Notes: generated by a model not told the origin, from the sequence alone. A stretch of DNA of 64,000 nt from Dehalococcoidia bacterium (GCA_034423575.1 DAOUIF010000036.1:9563-73562), one strand, 5' to 3'. Positions 9,057 to 33,664 are shown, counted from the first letter of the stretch. Numbers and translations are program-made.

Positions 9057-9575
9057 TTATCCCTCGTTATCGAGCCTTGCTTCGCCGTTGGGAAGGGCGG
9101 GCCAGAACAGCTCGTACAGCCGGTCGGACAGCTCTTCGCATAAGCCTACCCCGGCGGCTACTTCGGTCGCTGTTTCTTCATCCTCGTAAAAGTTGCTGTG
9201 CAACCCCCGGGCCGTGCGAAAAGCGTTGGCAATCCACTCCTGTGTTGCCGTGTCGCCTGCATCGCCAACCAGTCCACCCAACTCTCGAATCACCGTCCAG
9301 ATGGAACCGTGGGAGTGGATGACCCCGCCGTGCCGTGCGCTAACGGCTTTAATGGTCTCGGCGACCATTCCCCATGCCTTATTGGAAGCTTGGGGCAAAT
9401 CACCATCCTCCAGTAAGTGCTTCCATGCACTCGCCCGGAAATCCCGTCCGAGCTGAGCATATTTCTCCGCTGTTCGGCCGGCGTCAGCCGGCTGAACCGG
9501 GTCCCTGGCGGCCGCCAGGCCCCGGGCCACAGCGTCGGCGACGTCACTGTCAGAGAAGGTCAGCGGCGTTGACAT
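9057..9575 (-). CDS. PaREP1-like (HEPN-superfamily related) protein of unknown function
   Basis: ORF 9057..9629; ATG 9575 lies 2 nt after the upstream TAG. HLLEDGDLPQASNKAWGMVAETIKAVSARHGGVIHSHGSIW and ARGLHSNFYEDE resemble my recollection of the PaREP1 pattern (GD.xQASEKxWGA...H.....LHxNFYE). This is family recall, not a search. Confidence 0.4.
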   Translation of the reverse strand: MSTPLTFSDSDVADAVARGLAAARDPVQPADAGRTAEKYAQLGRDFRASAWKHLLEDGDLPQASNKAWGMVAETIKAVSARHGGVIHSHGSIWTVIRELGGLVGDAGDTATQEWIANAFRTARGLHSNFYEDEETATEVAAGVGLCEELSDRLYELFWPALPNGEARLDNEG

Positions 9576-9577
9576 TG

Positions 9578-10801
9578 CTAGTCGCCGACGGCTTCGGCGG
9601 TGGTCGACTTTAGACGCTCGGGCCACCACGGGTCGTCATATTCGTTGAAGAGACCCTTCATGTGGGGCATCACTTCATTGGCGAACAGGTCAGTGTTCTT
9701 CCGTACCAGTTCAGGCGGCATGCTTCCAATCTGGAGCAACACCATGAGGTGTCCGATACGGAGCATCTCGCAGGCCTCGGTTAGCTTGCGCCGGACCGTC
9801 TCCGGGCTCCCGCCGATGACATGGCCCTGCTCGATATAGTCTTTCCAGCTGTTCTCCTGGGCGGTGCGGTGCGCCTCTTCGCCCATCTGCGGGCGCAGGG
9901 ATTTGCGGATGGACTCCAGCGATCGATAACCGGGAGATTCGGCGAAGGGCGGGTACACCCGCAGCATCTTCTCGTAGAAATATTTCACGTGTTGCTCGTA
10001 ATCTTTTTCCGCCTGCTCGTCAGTCTCCGAAACGCAAACCAACTGCAAAAATCCCAAGCGGTGGGGGTTGTCATCGACTCCACGCTCGGCAACTCGCTCC
10101 CAATAGCCCTTGACGATGTTGTGGCCGCGCAGATAGCCGTAGTAGGACAGGTAGCAATACACGTAGTCCCGATCCAGCACCCAGTCCCAAGTCTCCAGGC
10201 TGCCGGACCCGGGGATCCACACCGGCGGGTGAGGCTCCTGCATCGGACGCGGCCAGATGCTGATGTAGCGCAGCTTGTTGTACTTGCCGTTGAAAATCGT
10301 CGGCTGGTGCTGGGTCCAGGCCTGCATGATCACGTCGTGCGCTTCGGTATGGCGGTCGCGCAACGTGATGGGCACCTGGCCGTAGGAGAACGTCGTGTCC
10401 ATTGCGGTTCCCACCGGGAATCCGGCTACCAGACGGCCGTTGGAAATGACATCGAGCATCGCCATCTCCTCCGCCACGCGCACGGGCGGGTTGTACAGGG
10501 CAAGGCTGTTGCCCAATACGATCACAGCGCCGTTGTTTGTGGAGTTCGCCAGCACCGAAGCGATCAGATTGGGCGATGGCATGATGCCGTATGCATTGTT
10601 GTGGTGCTCGTTGACGCAGATGCCGTCGAACCCGACCTCGTCGGCGTAGCGCAACTGGTCGATGTACTGAGCGTAGTATTCGTTGCCCTTGGCCGGGTCA
10701 AAGTTTTCGTTGGGCAGGTCTACCCACGCCGAGTGGTGTTGCTGGGCGAAATCGTCCGGCAGGTCCTGGTATGGCATGAGGTGGAAAAATGAGACTTTCA
10801 T
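9578..10801 (-). CDS. LLM-class flavin-dependent oxidoreductase
   Basis: MKVSFFHLMPYQDLPDDF..YADEVGFDGICVNEHHNNAYGIMPSPNLIASVLA..GRLVAGFPVGT is a typical luciferase-like monooxygenase family sequence. Confidence 0.8.
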   Translation of the reverse strand: MKVSFFHLMPYQDLPDDFAQQHHSAWVDLPNENFDPAKGNEYYAQYIDQLRYADEVGFDGICVNEHHNNAYGIMPSPNLIASVLANSTNNGAVIVLGNSLALYNPPVRVAEEMAMLDVISNGRLVAGFPVGTAMDTTFSYGQVPITLRDRHTEAHDVIMQAWTQHQPTIFNGKYNKLRYISIWPRPMQEPHPPVWIPGSGSLETWDWVLDRDYVYCYLSYYGYLRGHNIVKGYWERVAERGVDDNPHRLGFLQLVCVSETDEQAEKDYEQHVKYFYEKMLRVYPPFAESPGYRSLESIRKSLRPQMGEEAHRTAQENSWKDYIEQGHVIGGSPETVRRKLTEACEMLRIGHLMVLLQIGSMPPELVRKNTDLFANEVMPHMKGLFNEYDDPWWPERLKSTTAEAVGD

Positions 10802-10916: not shown

Positions 10917-11759
10917 CTAGCTCGCCAGCCAGGACTTTACGGCGGCGATAAAGTCGGAAGGGTTGTCCTCAAACACCATGTGCCCGGCCCGCTCAATGTT
11001 GACCGTGCTGCCCTGGGCCAGGGTTGACACCATCTGATCCGCGGTCTCCTGGGTAAGCAGGTCGGTCTCAGTTCCCCGCACGACCAGGGTCGGGCAGGTG
11101 ATGTTTTCCAGCGCCGGCCACAGGTCGGCGGCCGGGGCCGCGGTGCCGTTGATTCGCTGCTCGCGGATCGCCGGATCAAACTTCCAACCGACCTTGCCAT
11201 CGGCCAACAGGCGGGTCTGACCGGTCAAGCGCCGGCGCATCACCGCCTCCGAGGCGAAGCGATTGCCGGTTTGCACGTGGGCCAGCGCGTCCTCGAAGTT
11301 GTCGAAGTGCGGAGGTATCGCGCGCAATTCCTCGGTGATGCGGTTTCCTCCAGCCGCCTCGATGCGAGGCCCGATGTCAACGATGCACAGGCGTTCCAGC
11401 CTGTCCGGATGCGCGCCCGCGAAGGCCATGCTGTTGCGCCCACCCATGGAGTGCCCAAATAAAGTGAACTTGCCCAGACCGACGGCTTCCAGGAACCCGA
11501 CCAGGTCGGCCACGAAAGCCTCGGTGGAGTAGTCACCGCCCGGCGCGTGGTCGGTGTCGCCGCGGCCGCGCTGATCGAGGGCGTAGACATGGTAGTCGCC
11601 GCACAGTGCTTCCGCGACGTCGGCCCAGACGTTCGCGTGACCGCGCAGGCCATGAAGCAGAACAAGGGGTGGGTTGCCTTCCGTGCCCCAGTCGAGGTAA
11701 TGCAGGTTGATGCCATTGGCGGTGACGGTCCGGCTCCTGGGTTGCACTTGCGTGGTCAT
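10917..11759 (-). CDS. Alpha/beta hydrolase fold protein
   Basis: ORF 10917..11831; ATG 11759 is preceded by AGGAGG. INLHYLDWGTEGNPPLVLLHGLRGHANVW and the nucleophile elbow GHSMGG fit the fold. Confidence 0.8.
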   Translation of the reverse strand: MTTQVQPRSRTVTANGINLHYLDWGTEGNPPLVLLHGLRGHANVWADVAEALCGDYHVYALDQRGRGDTDHAPGGDYSTEAFVADLVGFLEAVGLGKFTLFGHSMGGRNSMAFAGAHPDRLERLCIVDIGPRIEAAGGNRITEELRAIPPHFDNFEDALAHVQTGNRFASEAVMRRRLTGQTRLLADGKVGWKFDPAIREQRINGTAAPAADLWPALENITCPTLVVRGTETDLLTQETADQMVSTLAQGSTVNIERAGHMVFEDNPSDFIAAVKSWLAS

Positions 11760-11815
11760 GTCATTCCTCCTGGGTGTGGTTGAGATGTTCGACACCGAAA
11801 TTGCGCCCACGTTGG

Positions 11816-12604
11816 CTACTTGAGCTGCCAATTGGGGCGGCGCTTCTCGGCGAAGGCGCGAGGACCTTCCTTGCTGTCCTGTGTGGTCAGAATGTAGTCG
11901 TAGGCAACGTAAGTCTTGGCGCTGACTTCGGCGATAGACATGTCCAGGCTGCTGTAGGCCAGGTCCTTGATGGTTCGAACCGCCAACGGGGCGTTCTGCG
12001 CGATGCTCTCCGCCATTTTGATGGCTTCCGGCACCAGTTCATCCGCGGGTACCACCTTGTTCAGGAAACCCATTTCCTTGACGCGTTCGGCCGGCAGCAG
12101 GTCGGCGGTCATCACCAACTCCAGGACGTTGGAAATGCCGATCATCTTGGTGAGTTCCACCGCGAAGGGCGGCATGAGGCTCCACTTGGTTTCGGTGATG
12201 CCCAGGCGCGCATTGTCCGCGGCCAGGCGAACGTCGCACATCTGGGCGATGGACCATCCACCGGCAGCGGCGGCGCCGTTGACCGCGGCCACCAACGGCT
12301 TGACCGGCCGCTCCCACATGTGGGGCTTGTTGGGAGACATGCTGTTTTCGGCGCGAGCCTGCACCCCCTCGGCGTTGTCGGCGGCGCGCTCTTTCAGGTC
12401 CCGCCCGGCGCAGAAGTTGCGGCCGGCGCCGGTGATCACGGCTACCCAGGCCTCGTCGTCCTCATTGTCGAAGTGGTCGATCACCTCGCGCAGTTCACCG
12501 CGCAGTTGTCGATTGATCGCGTTGGAAGACTCGGGCCGATTGAGCATTATGATTGCCACGTGGTTGTCGGTTCCGGTCTTTTCGTAGAGCACGGTTTCAG
12601 GCAT
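11816..12604 (-). CDS. Enoyl-CoA hydratase/isomerase (crotonase) family protein
   Basis: ORF 11816..12787; ATG 12604 follows AAGGAGA. VAIIMLNRPESSNAINRQL..VITGAGRNFCAGRDLKE is the crotonase signature. Confidence 0.85.
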   Translation of the reverse strand: MPETVLYEKTGTDNHVAIIMLNRPESSNAINRQLRGELREVIDHFDNEDDEAWVAVITGAGRNFCAGRDLKERAADNAEGVQARAENSMSPNKPHMWERPVKPLVAAVNGAAAAGGWSIAQMCDVRLAADNARLGITETKWSLMPPFAVELTKMIGISNVLELVMTADLLPAERVKEMGFLNKVVPADELVPEAIKMAESIAQNAPLAVRTIKDLAYSSLDMSIAEVSAKTYVAYDYILTTQDSKEGPRAFAEKRRPNWQLK

Positions 12605-25834: not shown

Positions 25835-25941
25835 AATACACCTCCTCTGTCAGGAACGACCGCCATGCCAGCGGCGGCAAGGGTGAGGTAGTGAGCCAAA
25901 CTGATCGACAGCAAGCAGCGGCGCCGATTCGTTCGTGCGGC

Positions 25942-25971
25942 AGTATAGACGGCGCGCCGGCGGACGGTCAA
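25942..25971 (-). promoter_or_regulatory. Candidate sigma70-type promoter of coxSLM
   Basis: Minus strand reads TTGACC (25971-25966), an 18-nt spacer, then TATACT (25947-25942), about 100 nt upstream of the coxS start. Confidence 0.45.
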
Positions 25972-26517
25972 TCTGAATGGACTCAAACCAGGGCACGTTG
26001 GCATCCAGATGGGACGCGCAGCGCACTGATTTAATCGGCCCGACAACTCCACAGTGTACGGGCATGAGCGTGTCAGCATCGGCGAACAAACTGGAGCCTT
26101 TACGCCGAAATTTCCATCGATTTCGCCTCGGTCGCCCGCAGTTCTTTCGTCAAACCGGCCATGCGAAAATTGATGGTAGAAGCGCCAGGGACGGTTGCAA
26201 GTCAGCGGGAAGGTCAACATTGCCGTCGCAACGCGACTGATGCGACCACGGTCGACCCTCAACGTGCGCCGCCCGTTCAGATGTACAAACGCCACCGCGA
26301 AAACCGGGGACGCAGCGCCCGTCGTAATGGCATTATTGGTAAACGGCGTTGTGGCTGTCCCTCGGCCGTGACCGCCTGTGCCTGGCAGTCCAACATCAAC
26401 GAAATTGGCTCGATACTCAGCCATCCCATGGCGACGTAATACCGGGCGGTAACCGATGTTGACGAGCGGCTGGGCACGCATCGACCTTGGCAACTCTGCG
26501 TCGGAGGAGGCGAATCA

Positions 26518-27219
26518 ATGATCCGGACACCATGGCTGATTTTCGCTATCGCAGTTGTTGCGCTGACGCTGGTCGGCGCGGTGTCAGCGCAGTCGCCGCC
26601 GTCGCCGCCAACCGTGCTGGCCGGAACCGCCTGGCTGGACGGACAGTTGGTGCCACCTGGAACGCTGATCCAGGCGATGCAGGGCGACACCCGTCTCAGC
26701 CGGATCACAGCCAGAAATGATGGACGGTTCGGTCCGTTGCAGGTTCCGAAACCTGCGGGTGTCGGGCCGGTGTACTTCTTGATCGACGGCCAAAGAGCCG
26801 ACGTGGAAATGGAATGGCGTGCCGGGTTCCTGCAAGCCGACCTGGAACTGCGAGCCGGATTGGGACGCGGTCCCACCCCGCATGCAGATCCCACCGCGAC
26901 CCCAACTCCCGCACAACCCGCGGCTCCCACTGCGGTGATGGTACCCGGGCCTGCGGGGCCGCGTGGTGAAAGAGGCCCGTCCGGGCCGCCGGGGCCTCCG
27001 GGTGCGGCAGGACCGCAGGGACAACCCGGCCCCGCCGGGCCCGCTGGAGCGCAAGGGGAGACGGGACCGCAAGGCGACGCAGGCCCCCGTGGCCAGCAAG
27101 GGGATTCCGAGGGCTACGAGCTTTACACCCTCGCCGCGGCTGGCGTCGCCGTTGTGTTGGCGCTCGCAGCGCTGATCCTGTCGATTGTGACGTTTTCGCG
27201 GCGCGATCGCTTGGGGTAA
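26518..27219 (+). CDS. Secreted, C-terminally membrane-anchored protein with a collagen-like (G-X-Y) triple-helix region
   Basis: GGAGGAGG SD; signal-like N-terminus [25 protein letters not shown]; Pro/Thr linker; 18 uninterrupted GXY triplets; C-terminal hydrophobic anchor [20 protein letters not shown] followed by FSRRDR. Confidence 0.75.
26947..27108 (+). repeat. Collagen-like GXY tandem codon repeat (18 triplets)
   Basis: [54 protein letters not shown], counted by hand from the translation. Confidence 0.8.
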
Positions 27220-27266: not shown

Positions 27267-27299
27267 GCCCGCCGCGATAATTCGGCGGGCTCGTATTTG
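27267..27299 (+). terminator. Probable intrinsic terminator after the collagen-like gene
   Basis: GCCCGCCG (27267-27274) pairs with CGGCGGGC (27283-27290), loop cgataatt, followed by tcgtaTTTgc. Confidence 0.45.
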
Positions 27300-27330
27300 C
27301 ACATTCGGAAGGCCAATGATCCGGCTGATA

Positions 27331-27692
27331 CGCTAGATTATCCCTCGTGGTCACACCGATTCGCAGTTCTTACACCATACTGCCGCAACACGTTGACCCA
27401 CGTCTTTCGCGGCACCACCGACACCAACCCGCCTGACATCACACCATCGGCGCGTGCGACGCCGTCGAATTGGCAGGGGAACACGGCACTCCTTTGTACG
27501 CCCTGGACGAAGCAACCCTGCACTCCAAGTGCCGGCAGTTCGCGGGTGCATTCGCATCACGTTACCCCAAAGCGCGGGCCGTGTACGCTTCCAAGACCTG
27601 CATCGACCCCGCGCTGGCGCGCATCTTCGCCGAGGAGGGCTTGGGACTGGACGTGGTATCCGGCGGTGAGTTGGCCGCATCGTGTGGACGGC
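27331..27692 (+). pseudogene. Degraded, truncated copy of the lysA 5' region (upstream leader plus about the first 105 codons)
   Basis: Aligns with 29666-30027. The start codon is ATA (27377) where intact lysA has ATG. There is a +1 and then a -1 indel, an in-frame TGA at 27434-27436, and then GTPLYALDEATLHSKCRQFAGAFASRYPKARAVYASKTCIDPALARIFAEEGLGLDVVSGGELA against intact GTPLYVLDESTLRSRCRQFASAFKSRYSNAQAVYASKAYINPALARIFAEEGLGLDVVSGGELA. Similarity stops near 27692. Confidence 0.8.
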
Positions 27693-27726
27693 CCGGCCAG
27701 TTCAGCATCGGACCGACGACCCGATG

Positions 27727-27966
27727 TTACCCTGCCTCTTCCGGGGGCGGGCGGGTTTCAAAGGCGAACAACTTACCGACCCGCACGCCCAGCGCTTTCG
27801 CCAATCTTCGGATACTTCTCAATGACGGGTTGCGGGCGCCACGCTCAATGCCGGAGAGGTAGGAAACGTGGATGCCAGATAGATTGGCCAATTCTTCCTG
27901 GGTGTAACCGCGCCGGTTGCGCAATCTGCGGATTTGTCGGCCAAAAGCCTCTTGGTAACTTGCCAT
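27727..27966 (-). CDS. XRE-family helix-turn-helix transcriptional regulator (79 aa)
   Basis: ORF 27727..28143; start taken as ATG 27966. FGRQIRRLRNRRGYTQEELANLSGIHVSYLSGIERGARNPSLRSIRRLAKALGV is a classic HTH_XRE sequence. Confidence 0.8.
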   Translation of the reverse strand: MASYQEAFGRQIRRLRNRRGYTQEELANLSGIHVSYLSGIERGARNPSLRSIRRLAKALGVRVGKLFAFETRPPPEEAG

Positions 27967-27993
27967 GACAGTCCCTTTTAGTATGTCGCAGTC

Positions 27994-28011
27994 TCCCGTG
28001 CCGGCAGGGGA
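27994..28011. promoter_or_regulatory. 18-nt palindrome just upstream of the XRE gene (candidate operator)
   Basis: TCCCGTGCCGGCAGGGGA is symmetric about 28002/28003 with one mismatched pair. It lies 28-45 nt upstream of the XRE ATG. Confidence 0.35.
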
Positions 28012-28208
28012 CGTCGGATAGACTGGCCCCTTCTGGTTCGGAGGCAAGCGCAAAAAGGCACCGATTCGCCTGTCGCCGTTTTCAAGGCGACTAACCAGGC
28101 GCACACGCTCTACGGCGAACTGATTGCAGCGCCGGAGCGACAAATCCCCTGAAGGCGGCGCAGTTGGGGTGCCTTTTCCCGAGCGGGACCCTGCGGGTCC
28201 TTATTGAC

Positions 28209-28228
28209 GACTGACAAATTTGCCAGTC
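28209..28228. promoter_or_regulatory. 20-nt near-perfect palindrome (candidate operator)
   Basis: GACTGACAAATTTGCCAGTC has 18 of 20 positions self-complementary and an AT-rich centre. Confidence 0.35.
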
Positions 28229-28307
28229 AAAAGCGCTTCGATGAGCGTTCAAACTTCCATCGCTGTAGGCAACGGACTTCCATAATGTAACGAAATATAG
28301 ATTATCA

Positions 28308-28331
28308 GTCCATAGCCTATAGTCTATGGAC
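28308..28331. promoter_or_regulatory. 24-nt near-perfect palindrome in an AT-rich patch (candidate operator)
   Basis: GTCCATAGCCTATAGTCTATGGAC has 22 of 24 positions self-complementary. It is preceded by cataatgtaacgaaatatagattat. Confidence 0.35.
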
Positions 28332-28403
28332 ATCAAAGCGGCATCTGGTTACGGTTTGAGTCATCCACCGCGCCCGGCTTCTCTTTTTTGCTGGATACGC
28401 CGA

Positions 28404-28430
28404 CATAAAACGCCCAAGATCGTTGGGCGT
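28404..28430 (-). terminator. Orphan intrinsic terminator reading on the minus strand
   Basis: The minus-strand RNA would be ACGCCCAA-CGAUC-UUGGGCGU followed by UUUAUGU. The 8-bp stem is perfect. No recognised minus-strand gene ends here. Confidence 0.45.
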
Positions 28431-28566
28431 GACGGCAAAGTAGTCCCTCCTGGCAATGGACTGTCAATCTGCGGGAAGAGGCAGGCCAATTTACAGGGCC
28501 AGGCCGAGCGCAACATCTGAACGTCAGAAAGGGTCGGACCGGAACCGAACGACCGAGGGGGTTCTA

Positions 28567-29025
28567 ATGCCATTCGCTTTGTGTCCTGGAGAAACGGAAA
28601 TCTGGTCAACGGGGGTGCGAGCCGGTTTGCCCGGCGTTGGCTCTCGCTCAAATCTGATCGTCACGACCCACCGGGTGATCATCGCGTACTCCCAATGGGG
28701 TGAGAGTTACGACCTGTGGATGCCGTTGGACATGGTGGTGACGGCTGCCTACGGGCGATTTCGGGGTCAATTCTCCTTCAGGAAGTTCTTCCTCTGGTCG
28801 CTGTTGTTCCTGGTGCCGGGGCTGATCTACCTGTTGGTATGGCTCTTCGGCCGCAAAGAAAGAATGGTTGTGGACGCCGGCGGTGAAATGCGAGTGGAGT
28901 TGGAGAACGACATATTGCAAGGAGCGCTGCCCGCGGAGTTCCTGGACGCCATCGCTTGCGCTCGCCATTCCCTTCTGCATGGCGCCTCGGCCAGCGGGCC
29001 GGTGCGGGTCACGTTGAACCCCTGA
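28567..29025 (+). CDS. Hypothetical membrane protein with an N-terminal bacterial PH-like region
   Basis: ORF 28456..29025; ATG 28567 follows GAGGGGG. LCPGETEIWSTGVRAG..SNLIVTTHRVIIAY resembles bPH/GRAM-like openings. One long hydrophobic segment: FFLWSLLFLVPGLIYLLVWLF. Confidence 0.5.
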   Translation: MPFALCPGETEIWSTGVRAGLPGVGSRSNLIVTTHRVIIAYSQWGESYDLWMPLDMVVTAAYGRFRGQFSFRKFFLWSLLFLVPGLIYLLVWLFGRKERMVVDAGGEMRVELENDILQGALPAEFLDAIACARHSLLHGASASGPVRVTLNP

Positions 29026-29041
29026 TACGGTGGTGTGAGAC

Positions 29042-29545
29042 ATGAACAACGAGAAGCTGGGAAAACTGGTTGACGACTTGGTGGAACTGGCTGGCGGCTA
29101 CAACCCGAGAGGTTTGCTGATCGTCGTTTTGAGCGGATTGGCGCTTGGCTTCCTGGTGGGCGGCTTCCTGGCAATGCGGCTCGGCATTTTCTTTCTGCTG
29201 CTCCCGGTGGTGGCGGGCCTGGTGGCCGGCGGCGCGATAGCCATCATGAAGTTCCAGGAAAGCGGAGGGTTCTCAAATGTGCGCCAGCAAAGGGCCGCAG
29301 CGCAAAGCACAAGCCCTTCCAGCGCGCCCCGGCAACCGAGTCCCGCACCTCCACCACCCACCCAGACCCCGGTCCCGGCGCCGGCTCAACTCAGCGAGCT
29401 TGAGCAGCAGGTCATGGAATGGGTGGTTCAGGCCAACGGCAACGTATCGGTGAGTGCCCTCGCCGATGAACTGGGCATGCCCCCCGATACGGCACGGCAA
29501 ACCATCGAAGATTTGATCGGCCGGGGAGCTATTACGCTGGGTTGA
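29042..29545 (+). CDS. Hypothetical membrane-tethered protein with a C-terminal winged-helix-like domain
   Basis: Two hydrophobic segments (LLIVVLSGLALGFLVGGFLA and IFFLLLPVVAGLVAGGAIAI), a Pro/Ser/Ala linker, then LSELEQQVMEWVVQANGNVSVSALADELGMPPDTARQTIEDLIGRGAI, which looks wHTH-like. Confidence 0.5.
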   Translation: MNNEKLGKLVDDLVELAGGYNPRGLLIVVLSGLALGFLVGGFLAMRLGIFFLLLPVVAGLVAGGAIAIMKFQESGGFSNVRQQRAAAQSTSPSSAPRQPSPAPPPPTQTPVPAPAQLSELEQQVMEWVVQANGNVSVSALADELGMPPDTARQTIEDLIGRGAITLG

Positions 29546-29711
29546 CGCTCGGCAGAATTGTTTGTCGCTCCACCCAATGGAGTCGACCAGGTGGGGTGCC
29601 TGCGGGCCATGACGCCGGGTCAAGCGAACCCCGACCGGCGTTCGAATGACGGAAGCGGGAGGCTGTGCTAAATTACGCTCCCATCATGCCATTGGCCAAC
29701 CGGAGCGTCCC

Positions 29712-31025
29712 ATGCTGCCGCAACATCTTGCCCACGTTTTTCCAGACACCACCCACACCAACCCCGCGGGACATCTCACCATCGGCGGGTGCGACGCCGT
29801 TGAGTTGGTAGAGCAGTACGGAACCCCGCTGTACGTCCTGGACGAATCCACTCTGCGTTCAAGGTGTCGCCAGTTCGCGAGCGCGTTCAAGTCCCGGTAT
29901 TCCAATGCCCAGGCGGTGTATGCGTCCAAGGCGTATATCAACCCGGCGTTGGCGCGGATTTTCGCCGAAGAGGGCCTGGGACTGGACGTGGTGTCCGGAG
30001 GCGAGCTGGCCGTGGCCGTGGCCGGCGAAGTGCCGCTGGACAAGGTGTATTTCCACGGCAACAACAAGACGCCCGCCGAGTTGGAGGAAGCCGTAGCGGC
30101 CGGCATCGGGCGCGTCGTGGTCGACAGTTTCCACGAGTTGGACCTGCTGGAGCATATCTGCGCCGATGCCGACAAATCCCAGGACATCCTGGTGCGCGTC
30201 TCGCCCGGGATCGACCCGCACACCCATGCCTACACTACCACGGGCATCATCGATTCCAAGTTCGGCTTCTCCATCCAAACGGGCGACGCGGAAAAAGCCA
30301 TCCAGCAGGCCATCGCTGCACCACACCTCAACCTTCAAGGGCTGCACTTCCACCTGGGATCGCCGATCTTCGAGCTGGAACCCTACCAGGCTGCGACAGA
30401 CCTCGTGCTCCGTTTTGCCGCCGGACTGCGCGAACAGGGCCTTAACCTTCAGGAGTTCAGTCCAGGCGGCGGATTCGCCATCGCCTACACCCGCAACGAC
30501 CAGCCGCCAGCCCCGGACGACTACGCGGAGGCAATCGTAAGCACGTTGACCGCCACCTGCGACGAGCTGGGCATGGAGCCCCCGGCGCTGGTTATCGAGC
30601 CTGGCCGTTCGATCATCGGACCGGCCGGCGTAGCGCTGTATCGCATCGGGGCGATTAAGGAGATACCGGGAGTGCGCACCTACGTCAGCGTGGACGGGGG
30701 TATGGGAGACAACATCCGGCCGGCGCTGTATCAAGCATCGTATGAGGTGCTTTCCGCCAACCGGCCTGGAGCCGATCCGGACGCCACCGTGACCATCGCC
30801 GGCAAGTACTGCGAATCCGGGGATGTTCTCGCGTCGGACATCCTGCTGCCGGCCCCGGCCGCCGGAGACGTAATCGCCATACCCGCCGCCGGCGCCTATT
30901 GTCCTTCCATGGCAAGCAACTACAACCTCAATCCGCGCCCTCCCATCGTCCTGGTGAACCAAGGTGAGAGCCGGTTGATCCGTCGGCGCGAGTCCTACGC
31001 GGACATGATGCTGTGTGACCTATAG
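29712..31025 (+). CDS. lysA: Diaminopimelate decarboxylase
   Basis: ORF 29646..31025; start taken as ATG 29712. GTPLYVLDESTLRSRCRQF..YASKAY (PLP Lys context)..VVSGGEL..HFHLGS..EPGRSIIGPAG..YCESGD. Confidence 0.9.
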   Translation: MLPQHLAHVFPDTTHTNPAGHLTIGGCDAVELVEQYGTPLYVLDESTLRSRCRQFASAFKSRYSNAQAVYASKAYINPALARIFAEEGLGLDVVSGGELAVAVAGEVPLDKVYFHGNNKTPAELEEAVAAGIGRVVVDSFHELDLLEHICADADKSQDILVRVSPGIDPHTHAYTTTGIIDSKFGFSIQTGDAEKAIQQAIAAPHLNLQGLHFHLGSPIFELEPYQAATDLVLRFAAGLREQGLNLQEFSPGGGFAIAYTRNDQPPAPDDYAEAIVSTLTATCDELGMEPPALVIEPGRSIIGPAGVALYRIGAIKEIPGVRTYVSVDGGMGDNIRPALYQASYEVLSANRPGADPDATVTIAGKYCESGDVLASDILLPAPAAGDVIAIPAAGAYCPSMASNYNLNPRPPIVLVNQGESRLIRRRESYADMMLCDL

Positions 31026-32144: not shown

Positions 32145-32600
32145 CTAGACCGCTTCGTACGCCTTGTTGCGTCCCTTGTTGACCGTGCGGAGCCGTCCCT
32201 GCATCTCGAGGCTGCGGATGGCCTGCATCACGGTGGGATCGCCGTGGCGCCGGAATTTGCCGGTGATCTTGCTTCGAGTCCGGGCGGTCGCGCAGTATTC
32301 CAGAACTTGTTCGGCCAGGAGGTCTCTCACCTCGGGCAGGGGCTGAATGGGCAGGACGATGGTGTGTCCGGGATTGCCGTTGGCCTCTTCGCCCGGTTGG
32401 AATTCCAGGCGATCGCTGTGGGCTCTGAGGAACGAGCGGATGCGTCGTCGCAGCGATCCTCCGGTCCCCGTGGAGCCGTACCCGTGCACCACCTCAAGGA
32501 GCTCTGAGGGCGGGCCGGCAGCCAGCAACCGATTGTAAGCGGCTATCAGCTCCGCCAGAGATTCTGGCCAGGTCCTTCCGTGGAGGTCGATACTTGCCAT
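32145..32600 (-). CDS. Smr (MutS2-related small nuclease) domain protein with a C-terminal winged-helix-like tail
   Basis: MASIDLHGRTWPESLAEL...LEVVHGYGSTGTGGSLRRRIRSFL matches the Smr DLHG / HGxG pattern. Confidence 0.6.
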   Translation of the reverse strand: MASIDLHGRTWPESLAELIAAYNRLLAAGPPSELLEVVHGYGSTGTGGSLRRRIRSFLRAHSDRLEFQPGEEANGNPGHTIVLPIQPLPEVRDLLAEQVLEYCATARTRSKITGKFRRHGDPTVMQAIRSLEMQGRLRTVNKGRNKAYEAV

Positions 32601-32606
32601 CGAGCG

Positions 32607-33335
32607 TCAGTCAGCCACCGCCATCAGCGCCGGCTCGCTTTCGCTTCCGTTGCGCGACCTGCCGGCCGCCTGCCATGGGATGTACTGCTTCCACTCTTCC
32701 AGGATCGTGCGGTTTTCGAGGATGCGGTAGGGATTGGGCTGCGGGGCAGTTGGCGCCCGGCGCAGCTTCATATTGGCCTCTTCCGGAGTGCGACCTGCTT
32801 TGGCGAGGTTGCAACGACCGCAAGCGGCCACAACGTTATCCCAGGTGTGGGGGCCATGCTGCCGGCGGGGCACCACGTGGTCGAGCGTAAGCTGTTGGGA
32901 GCGCTTGCCGCAGTATTGGCAGGTGTAATGGTCCCGCAAGAACACTTCTTTCTTGGACAGGCGGCGCGGCGCGAACGGTCGCTTGACCAGGTACACCAGC
33001 CGTATGATCGACGGAGCGTCCAGCGATGCGCTGTAAGTGCGAATCCGGGACGCCTCGGCCCTCTGTTCCAGGAGCTCGGCCTTGCCCTTGGCGACAAGCA
33101 CGATTGCCCGACGAACCGTGCAGACGTTGACCGGAACGTAGTTCAGGTTCAACACCAACACCGGGGCGGTGAGGCGACCCGGAATCGGAGCCCCTTTGCG
33201 TTGATCTTCCTCCGAAACTGGAGCGACGTCTGCCTTGCCGGGATTGCGACCCGAACCGTTGGCGCTGGGTTGTCGACCATTGTTCCGGTTTCTGGCCGCA
33301 CCCTTTTTTCGACCCGGTCGTCCCCGGCTTGCCAT
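32607..33335 (-). CDS. HNH endonuclease with a basic, Gly/Arg-rich N-terminal region
   Basis: ORF 32607..33434; start taken as ATG 33335. FLRDHYTCQYCGKRSQQLTLDHVVPRRQHGPHTWDNVVAACGRCNLAKAG is the HNH motif. Confidence 0.85.
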   Translation of the reverse strand: MASRGRPGRKKGAARNRNNGRQPSANGSGRNPGKADVAPVSEEDQRKGAPIPGRLTAPVLVLNLNYVPVNVCTVRRAIVLVAKGKAELLEQRAEASRIRTYSASLDAPSIIRLVYLVKRPFAPRRLSKKEVFLRDHYTCQYCGKRSQQLTLDHVVPRRQHGPHTWDNVVAACGRCNLAKAGRTPEEANMKLRRAPTAPQPNPYRILENRTILEEWKQYIPWQAAGRSRNGSESEPALMAVAD

Positions 33336-33664
33336 CTGCCAACCTCTTTGCAGGTAGCGCTTTCGCTGCCGCGTCGTGCCGAAACGATTATTCGCTAATG
33401 ATATTACTGCACTCATTATAACGCCGATTTCCACAATCCGACACCGGGGTCGTCACCCTAGTCGTCGCGCTACCCACCCCGCGCGTTACCGGATCGCAAT
33501 CAGCCCGTGGCATCCGAAAAGACGTGTGAGGCGACCCGGTGCTCCGACTGGAGGTCCGGGATTCCCTCGCATCCTCGGGAAAATCTCCCCCTGTGGTAAA
33601 CTGGCCGCCGATTTTAGGCTCGAGCGTTACCGGCCGCAGTGTAGCGCTCCAGGACAAGACTGGA

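Follow-up and report, generated by a model that had tools for sequence, protein, structure and literature searches.

Why does a dead copy of the 5′ end of lysA, the gene encoding diaminopimelate decarboxylase, lie upstream of the intact gene, with a 2-kb cassette between the two? This arrangement was found in a 64,000-nt stretch of DNA from a Dehalococcoidia bacterium (GCA_034423575.1 DAOUIF010000036.1:9563-73562; hereafter the window), which is part of the 90.7-kb Joint Genome Institute (JGI) metagenome contig 3300009935 / Ga0131736_1000005, a contig seen in two samples. An earlier note on this DNA had proposed that an element integrated into the 5′ end of lysA while carrying its own replacement segment, leaving the displaced native fragment as a pseudogene. 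Our comparison with related genomes points to another origin: the lysA stub is probably the non-functional seam between two alternative cassettes of a hypervariable site between coxS and lysA, which became stacked in tandem. The parts of lysA concerned are the following.

27330..27341, plus strand: decayed lysA promoter-like motif ACGCTAGATTAT, compared with TGTGCTAnATTA at intact lysA (leader alignment marginal overall)
27377..27692, plus strand: dead lysA 5′ fragment of 316 bases, codons 1 to ~105 (alignments, neutral substitutions, tree)
29664..29675, plus strand: promoter-like motif TGTGCTAAATTA of the working lysA (alignment A1)
29712..31025, plus strand: intact lysA, diaminopimelate decarboxylase, 437 aa, right-hand anchor of the cassette site (Pfam)

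In a local alignment, positions 27375-27678 and 29710-30013 were identical in 238 of 304 columns (78%), with two single-base indels. The alignment score of the two lysA copies of the window was 274, compared to 21.2±2.4 (maximum 35) for 200 shuffled sequences. A hand count made earlier over 27485-27676 and 29820-30011 was reproduced exactly (147 of 192 bases and 52 of 64 residues identical), and recomputing the differences by codon position gave 10:6:29 for positions 1:2:3, so that most of them indeed fall at third positions. When measured against the lysA of a sister species (L162; loci of relatives are given as L numbers), the similarity of the stub extended over 318 nt and up to 27692, which is where the earlier note had placed its end. 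The stub therefore stops at codon ~105 of 437. The same note had extended the match to the leader, aligning 27331-27692 with 29666-30027. This holds for the lysA part, but the leader 27331-27374 is weakly similar to that of the working copy, its score being matched by 11 of 500 shuffles. The likeness of the leaders comes mostly from one short promoter-like motif, ACGCTAGATTAT at 27330-27341 versus TGTGCTAAATTA at 29664-29675, and a motif of this type (TGTGCTAnATTA) precedes lysA in all relatives (alignment A1). Strong homology between stub and gene begins at the ATG, while upstream of it the short motif is common and the cassettes are unlike, as is expected if lysA is a shared flank. A search of the duplicated leader and the spacer of the cassette with Rfam (E≤1) returned nothing relevant, neither a lysine riboswitch nor another structured RNA.

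All lesions listed in the earlier note were seen: ATA replaces ATG at 27377-27379, a +1 and a -1 indel are present and an in-frame TGA lies at 27434-27436. Significant homology, disabling lesions and truncation together identify 27377-27692 as a gene-fragment pseudogene, a relic of lysA. The working LysA is full-length and contains both of its domains (Orn_Arg_deC_N, PF02784, E=1.4e-55; Orn_DAP_Arg_deC, PF00278, E=6.4e-18); it is 87-95% identical at the amino acid level to its orthologues in most of L001-L016, and 82% to that of L012.

The third-position bias had been read as a sign that the two copies diverged while both were coding, a conclusion that turned out not to be needed. Substitutions in the stub were polarised with other sequences and its private changes were counted by codon position. 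The 27 private changes of the window stub were spread evenly over the codon (6:11:10; uniform, p=0.46), whereas six functional lineages, when pooled, gave 15:5:51, a distribution that differs from that of the stub (p=1.6e-4). In addition, 14 of the 27 changes hit sites that are invariant in 16 intact genes. The stub thus shows neutral decay on its own lineage, with no coding phase. The bias between the copies is explained by orthologous allele lineages that had diverged, with the neutral decay of the stub added, and two coding paralogues are not required.

The coxS-lysA site in related genomes

A LysA scan with one genome per species yielded 80 loci, all from metagenome-assembled genomes (MAGs) of Dehalococcoidia/Chloroflexota, of which 16 had 82-95% LysA identity to the window. 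L162, a further sister species, was added from an exact-protein look-up, in which the source contig was the only other match, giving 17 close relatives. Closer relatives or strain variants were also searched for in metagenomes; a scan with an M2 profile found none, and matches of a LysA scan there had ≤74% identity.

The backbone of the locus is conserved, with lysA-holB on the plus strand between two minus-strand groups, coxL-coxS before it and smr and hnh after it. The coxS-lysA gap measures 230-640 bp in several distant relatives (L022, L023, L027-L029) and 2-9 kb in the close relatives, where the cargo varies by species. Unrelated cargo sets occupy it: col; F10/F12/F42; M1-M2; a bPH_2 protein; and others. 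The site thereby behaves as a miniature replacement-type flexible genomic island. In the window it contains the following features.

26518..27219, plus strand: col, collagen-repeat membrane protein, 233 aa, left cassette (Pfam Collagen, E=4e-9; JGI gene call)
27267..27290, plus strand: terminator-like hairpin of col, GCCCGCCG...CGGCGGGC, then a T-rich tail (sequence; aligns with L015, L002 and L001)
27683..27693, no strand: illegitimate junction of lysA nt ~316 with the 3′ flank of the XRE operon (compared with lysA of L002, L015 and L162 and the XRE flank of L016 and L007)
27693..27726, minus strand: ~33-nt relic of the XRE-F2a intergenic region (alignment A3 with L016 and L007)
27727..27966, minus strand: XRE-family helix-turn-helix (HTH) regulator, 79 aa, left border of the right cassette (Pfam HTH_3, E=2.6e-18)
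27967..28566, no strand: divergent promoter/operator spacer between XRE and M1, 600 bp, with several short palindromes (GC 0.51-0.55; no Rfam family)
28567..29025, plus strand: M1, small membrane protein, 152 aa (no Pfam or PADLOC match)
29042..29545, plus strand: M2, membrane-anchored protein with a Pro-rich linker, 167 aa (alignment A2; weak winged helix-turn-helix (wHTH) Pfam matches)

Three arrangements were found among the close relatives. In type A (L001, L004, L005 and L007) col lies directly upstream of an intact lysA, and between them the terminator hairpin, followed by the promoter motif, is conserved (alignment A1). The window segment 26416-27677, containing col and the stub, is colinear with 9003-10301 of L001, containing col and the intact lysA. 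In type B (L003, L012 and L162) the order is coxS-(F2b-F2a)-XRE-M1-M2-lysA, with neither col nor a stub; F2a and F2b lie downstream of XRE on the minus strand. In type C the two are stacked as col, lysA stub, XRE, cargo and lysA. This type comprises the window, L015, L002 and L006, with stubs of 148 nt in L015 and 258 nt in L006 and a 31-nt remnant of L015's junction in L002; the stacked cargo of L006 is a bPH_2 protein in place of M1-M2. The earlier note had proposed to look for empty and occupied sites in related genomes, and both exist (L001, L004, L005 and L007 versus the window and L015). A second complete lysA was found at none of 161 loci, so that the two full-length copies which that note had named as a sign of simple paralogue decay do not occur there. 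A 44-codon insertion in lysA of L012 (10772-10886) was considered as a further scar and rejected, as it contains Ns and a repeated GGGF motif and is a scaffold-gap artefact.

All stacked genomes have the stub joined head-to-head to the 3′ flank of the XRE operon, but the point of fusion differs. The window stub breaks off at lysA nt ~316 and continues into the last ~33 nt of the XRE-F2a intergenic region; the join falls in a short GC-rich patch that reads GG-C-GG in both parents and is imperfectly common to them. The promoter-like sequence of F2a, TGCTATACT, has decayed to TGCTGAACT in the window, and the F2a gene itself is absent there. In L002 and L015, the join of lysA nt ~163 to an early F2a codon coincides with 5 nt of microhomology, TCCAA (lysA GCGCTCCAAGTG, F2a GTTCCAACTCAA), and at this common junction L015 has lost a further 13 nt relative to L002. 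In L006, lysA nt 265 meets F2a codon ~67 in a clean join (8295/8296) with ≤3 nt in common. Microhomology at the junctions is ≤5 nt, and the adjoining lysA homology spans 150-316 nt.

The two arms of the L006 junction are 94-95% identical to their parents in the same genome (lysA 10001-10265 and F2a 1754-1954). The equal divergence of the arms and the clean junction indicate that a single event made this copy, truncated from the start. Of its 15 arm differences, 10 are derived in the stub (1:4:5 over codon positions) and 4 lie on the other side, to which a deletion of 7 nt must be added. This fits a truncated copy whose arms differed very little at the outset.

A fixed attachment (att) core was not found, as the three lineages join at lysA nt ~316, ~163 and 265 and their partner positions are not the same either. 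Among all called genes within ±10 kb of the window cassette, Pfam annotation revealed no integrase or recombinase, in line with what the earlier note had stated. No tRNA was found, and M2 had no match in plasmids, phages or IMG/VR viral contigs. The differing positions on both sides, the microhomology and the lack of a recombinase suggest illegitimate joins and not site-specific integration.

A mirror-image scar was observed at the 3′ end of lysA in L007 (11218-11965). Its last 90 nt are duplicated (11218-11307 versus 11876-11965, 93%), and the copies flank a 560-bp insert with a small membrane/coiled-coil open reading frame (ORF; 11372-11806). The ancestral ...MMLCDL end (read as ...MMLCDLT) survives in the displaced downstream copy, while the working gene ends in ...MLCDVA.

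The two lysA copies of the window come from different allele lineages. When the first ~300 nt were placed in a neighbour-joining tree, the stub grouped with the intact lysA of L002/L015 in 300 of 300 bootstraps, and the working lysA with that of L003/L006 at 68% bootstrap. A tree on the first 265 nt gave the same groupings of stub and working gene. Since the earlier note had suggested comparing the phylogenies of the first 105 codons and the rest of the gene, we also considered a chimeric working lysA with a breakpoint at nt ~316; this was ruled out, because in a sliding-window comparison and in split trees both parts group with L003/L006. The stub of L006 grouped with L006's own lysA at 100%, which indicates that the L006 event was separate and younger.

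The flanks of the site are mosaic too. In the window, coxLS groups with L003 (100%; L006, which lacks a full coxLS, was left out of this tree), smr-hnh with L002/L015 (97%), and the two blocks that follow with L003/L006 (97%) and L001/4/5 (91%), in that order. We tried to polarise donor and recipient from these flanks, but this fails, as block affinity switches every few kb. For the same reason the displaced fragment cannot be called the native 5′ end, as the earlier note had done: with a kb-scale mosaic backbone, native and imported lysA 5′ ends are not assignable.

Origin of the lysA stub

We propose, as the most economical history, that two haplotypes, one ending in ...col-lysA and the other reading (F2b-F2a-)XRE-M1-M2-lysA, were the starting point and underwent a single recombination event. 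A homologous anchor, either the lysA region on the right or coxS/F2 on the left, would have served for one end of the incoming DNA, and the other end would have been closed by an illegitimate join at the level of microhomology, linking lysA nt ~316 to DNA just 3′ of the XRE operon. The product would be col - lysA stub, XRE - M1 - M2 - complete lysA. Only the downstream lysA would be needed, and the stub would then decay neutrally. Such an event might be homology-facilitated illegitimate recombination (HFIR) of a linear fragment. Equally, a fragment of ~2-2.4 kb, from the XRE flank to the lysA 5′ end, may have circularised and then entered by a single crossover in lysA. The duplication, the lesions, the arrangements in relatives, the three junctions, the allele affinities and the neutral pattern were observed directly; the type of recombination event and which cassette came in are the parts that we infer. 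At least three illegitimate joins are needed in any case.

Several points weigh against this history. A second lysA that was once longer, even complete, and was later shortened by deletions would also account for nested junctions that differ. A secondary origin is possible for the junction of the window as well, since the XRE module there is of the L007/L016 type. The window and L015/L002 may go back to one primary event that was later re-cut or to separate ones, and the 148-nt stub of L015 is too short for placement in a tree. The mosaic backbone leaves donor and recipient unassigned, and the parental haplotypes are documented in sister species only, as the searches returned no strain conspecific with the window.

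Decay of a complete second paralogue takes up the first of these points: two whole modules would have stood in tandem, and the upstream lysA and F2 genes would have been trimmed by independent deletions. Nested deletions would give just such differing stub end-points and retained F2a lengths, and the further loss of 13 nt in L015 relative to L002 at a common junction is in line with this reading. The third-position bias between the window copies also speaks for it, although that bias is explained by the allele lineages. We regard this decay as unlikely, since none of the 161 loci holds two full lysA genes, the stub lineage reveals no phase of purifying selection, and the youngest case, L006, with its equal arm divergence (94-95%) and clean join, fits a truncated birth better. 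In another scenario the interval from F2a/XRE to the lysA 5′ end was duplicated in tandem within one genome, after which the col cassette replaced the cargo of the left copy by homologous recombination. A lysA 5′ end joined to the 5′ part of F2a is the product expected from duplicating that interval, the differences between the L006 arms are mostly stub-derived (10 versus 4) so that the arms could have been identical at birth, and cassette swapping at this site is evidently frequent. Tandem duplication is nevertheless quite improbable for the window: it takes two events where one suffices, and because the window stub and working gene are of different allele lineages, a further replacement of the working lysA would be required.

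A site-specific integrative element, either a remnant or mobilised in trans, would have entered the lysA 5′ end with a replacement segment and left the native fragment as the pseudogene. The layout on which this proposal was built is real, as a duplicated target end flanks the 2-kb insert and occupied and empty sites both exist; the 90-nt duplication around a 560-bp insert at the lysA 3′ end of L007 also fits. The integration mechanism, on the other hand, is very improbable. No integrase or recombinase lies within ±10 kb, microhomology does not exceed 5 nt, and both sides of the join vary (lysA nt ~316, ~163 and 265; XRE-F2a spacer, early F2a codon and F2a codon ~67), so that there is no att core. 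Moreover, L003, L012 and L162 have the insert as their resident cassette at this very locus, and it was found nowhere else (7 M1 clusters, one genus; no plasmid, phage or viral match), and the working lysA has no breakpoint at nt ~316. The window being a metagenome contig and the site being polymorphic among relatives, an assembly artefact joining two strain haplotypes was also weighed; its probability is vanishingly small. A mis-join would give an intact allele, not a stub with a lost start, two frameshifts, a stop and neutral substitutions. The same architecture is present in independently assembled genomes, including the chromosome-level long-read MAGs L002 and L006, and the contig was seen in two samples.

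We therefore favour the stacking of two cassettes at the coxS-lysA site. It represents no new system or mechanism; it is a new instance of a known event, ordinary genome wear. A broader reading, to which we give little credence, is that lysA is a recurrent, integrase-free docking site, where XRE-controlled cassettes of membrane proteins and a collagen-like surface protein would be captured and stacked again and again on both sides by homology-anchored illegitimate recombination, with the retained ones under selection. Three or four separate scars at lysA ends were counted in 17 species, including the 3′-end scar of L007. If true, the docking site would be a cassette array like the orphan arrays of type VI secretion systems (T6SS) and Rhs, built on a housekeeping gene and serving, for example, host interaction or defence.

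Cassette genes and their surroundings

Gene calls, Pfam and GC content confirmed the earlier description of what lies between the two lysA copies, namely an XRE regulator, an AT-richer palindromic spacer and two membrane proteins. Pfam and PADLOC gave no information on the function of M1 or M2. The M1 family comprises 7 clusters in 5.8 billion proteins, all from the genus of the window, and M1 has no similarity to the bPH_2 protein that holds the same position in other genomes. Its AlphaFold model, of low confidence (predicted local distance difference test, pLDDT, 56), suggests a beta-rich N-terminal part, a helical segment at residues 71-94 and a C-terminal helix. M2 has a weak C-terminal winged-helix signal, with all wHTH Pfam scores below the curated cut-offs. 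F2a and F2b show weak PaREP1/HEPN matches in Pfam, where only the PaREP1 score of F2b passes the curated cut-off. A 190-aa ORF elsewhere in the window (9057-9629, minus strand) is distantly similar (26-29% identity, E=1e-5) to the PaREP1/HEPN-like F2b, which follows XRE in relatives, and is a second, diverged copy of this gene type.

The window XRE is 88% identical at the amino acid level to those of L007/L016 and 62-64% to those of the closest genomes (tblastn). Together with the proximal spacer (27693-28375) it is of the L007/L016 allele type (73% nt, 88% aa). Its neighbours differ, being M1-M2 in the window, a bPH_2 protein in L016 and F10-col in L007. The same XRE allele type beside differing cargo indicates that the regulator module recombines independently of the cargo. 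In L162, a Tara scaffold of type B, XRE was called at 41 aa (9073-9198), and the regulator may be decaying. The spacer part 28376-28548 had no counterpart detected in any relative; within it, a terminator-like hairpin on the minus strand (28410-28430) is followed by TTTAT, and no annotated gene ends there.

Between coxS and col lie ~650 bp (25850-26500) in which JGI calls a 226-aa minus-strand gene with no domain. Positions 26090-26517 are common only to L002 and L015, where the ORF is broken into pieces. This stretch is probably non-coding or a dead gene. Searches of 25.8-26.5 kb with tblastn revealed no relics of F2a/b, F10, F12, F41, F42 or a second XRE.

On the other side of the site, small Smr-domain and HNH-endonuclease genes follow directly downstream of holB (32145-33434, minus strand). 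At least the HNH gene keeps this position even in distant relatives, and smr falls into two sharply different allele classes among close species (~80% versus 65% nt).

Comparison with known systems

The lysA stub provides a natural example, from uncultivated Dehalococcoidia, of cassettes being added and not swapped, without an integrase and leaving behind a dated stub of the anchor gene. It can be read as a molecular fossil, a lysA allele of the L002/L015 type in a genome with a working lysA of the L003/L006 type, which brings to light mosaicism on the kb scale between sister species. Annotators should take it as a warning: such stubs are neither paralogues nor regulatory leaders nor att sites. 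Elements of the phage or integrative and conjugative type can insert into a protein-coding gene and restore its end from a carried copy. As with these gene-restoring elements, a duplicated gene end flanks the insert at the lysA site, the target is intact and relatives have empty sites. In contrast to them, the site lacks an integrase and a constant att core, nothing indicates mobility, and the insert is an alternative cassette that belongs to the locus itself.

HFIR and circularisation followed by a single crossover are both experimentally documented (PMC3240628), and HFIR or circular-fragment single crossover has been described in Acinetobacter, S. pneumoniae, P. stutzeri and E. coli (PMC3240628; references in PMC5361080). 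The lysA site has in common with these events a single homologous anchor (lysA or coxS) combined with one illegitimate join, where microhomology is 0-5 nt, an additive gain of DNA, a truncated duplicate of the anchor gene at the seam and the lack of a recombinase gene. It differs from them in that its mechanism is deduced from the comparative genomics of uncultivated Dehalococcoidia, in which the sub-mechanism and the direction of transfer are indistinguishable.

HFIR is also the proposed origin of gene fragments displaced in Vibrio T6SS effector-immunity arrays and in Rhs orphan arrays (PMC5361080). In these T6SS/Rhs arrays and those of contact-dependent inhibition (CDI) systems, as at the lysA site, a conserved gene acts as anchor, new modules arrive through one homologous and one illegitimate crossover and displace the older one, which takes along a stub of the conserved gene, and the process recurs in related lineages (PMC5361080). 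At the lysA site, however, the anchor is a housekeeping gene and not a toxin gene, a 5′ stub with its upstream cassette is displaced instead of a 3′ toxin tip with its immunity gene, and no selective logic like the retention of immunity is evident.

Replacement flexible genomic islands are exchanged by homologous recombination in their conserved flanks (PMC4033161). The coxS-lysA site resembles them in its fixed place between core genes, its species-specific content and the mosaic phylogenies of its flanks. It differs from them in being very small (0.2-9 kb), and in its stacked state, where the stub marks an additive accident on top of replacement.

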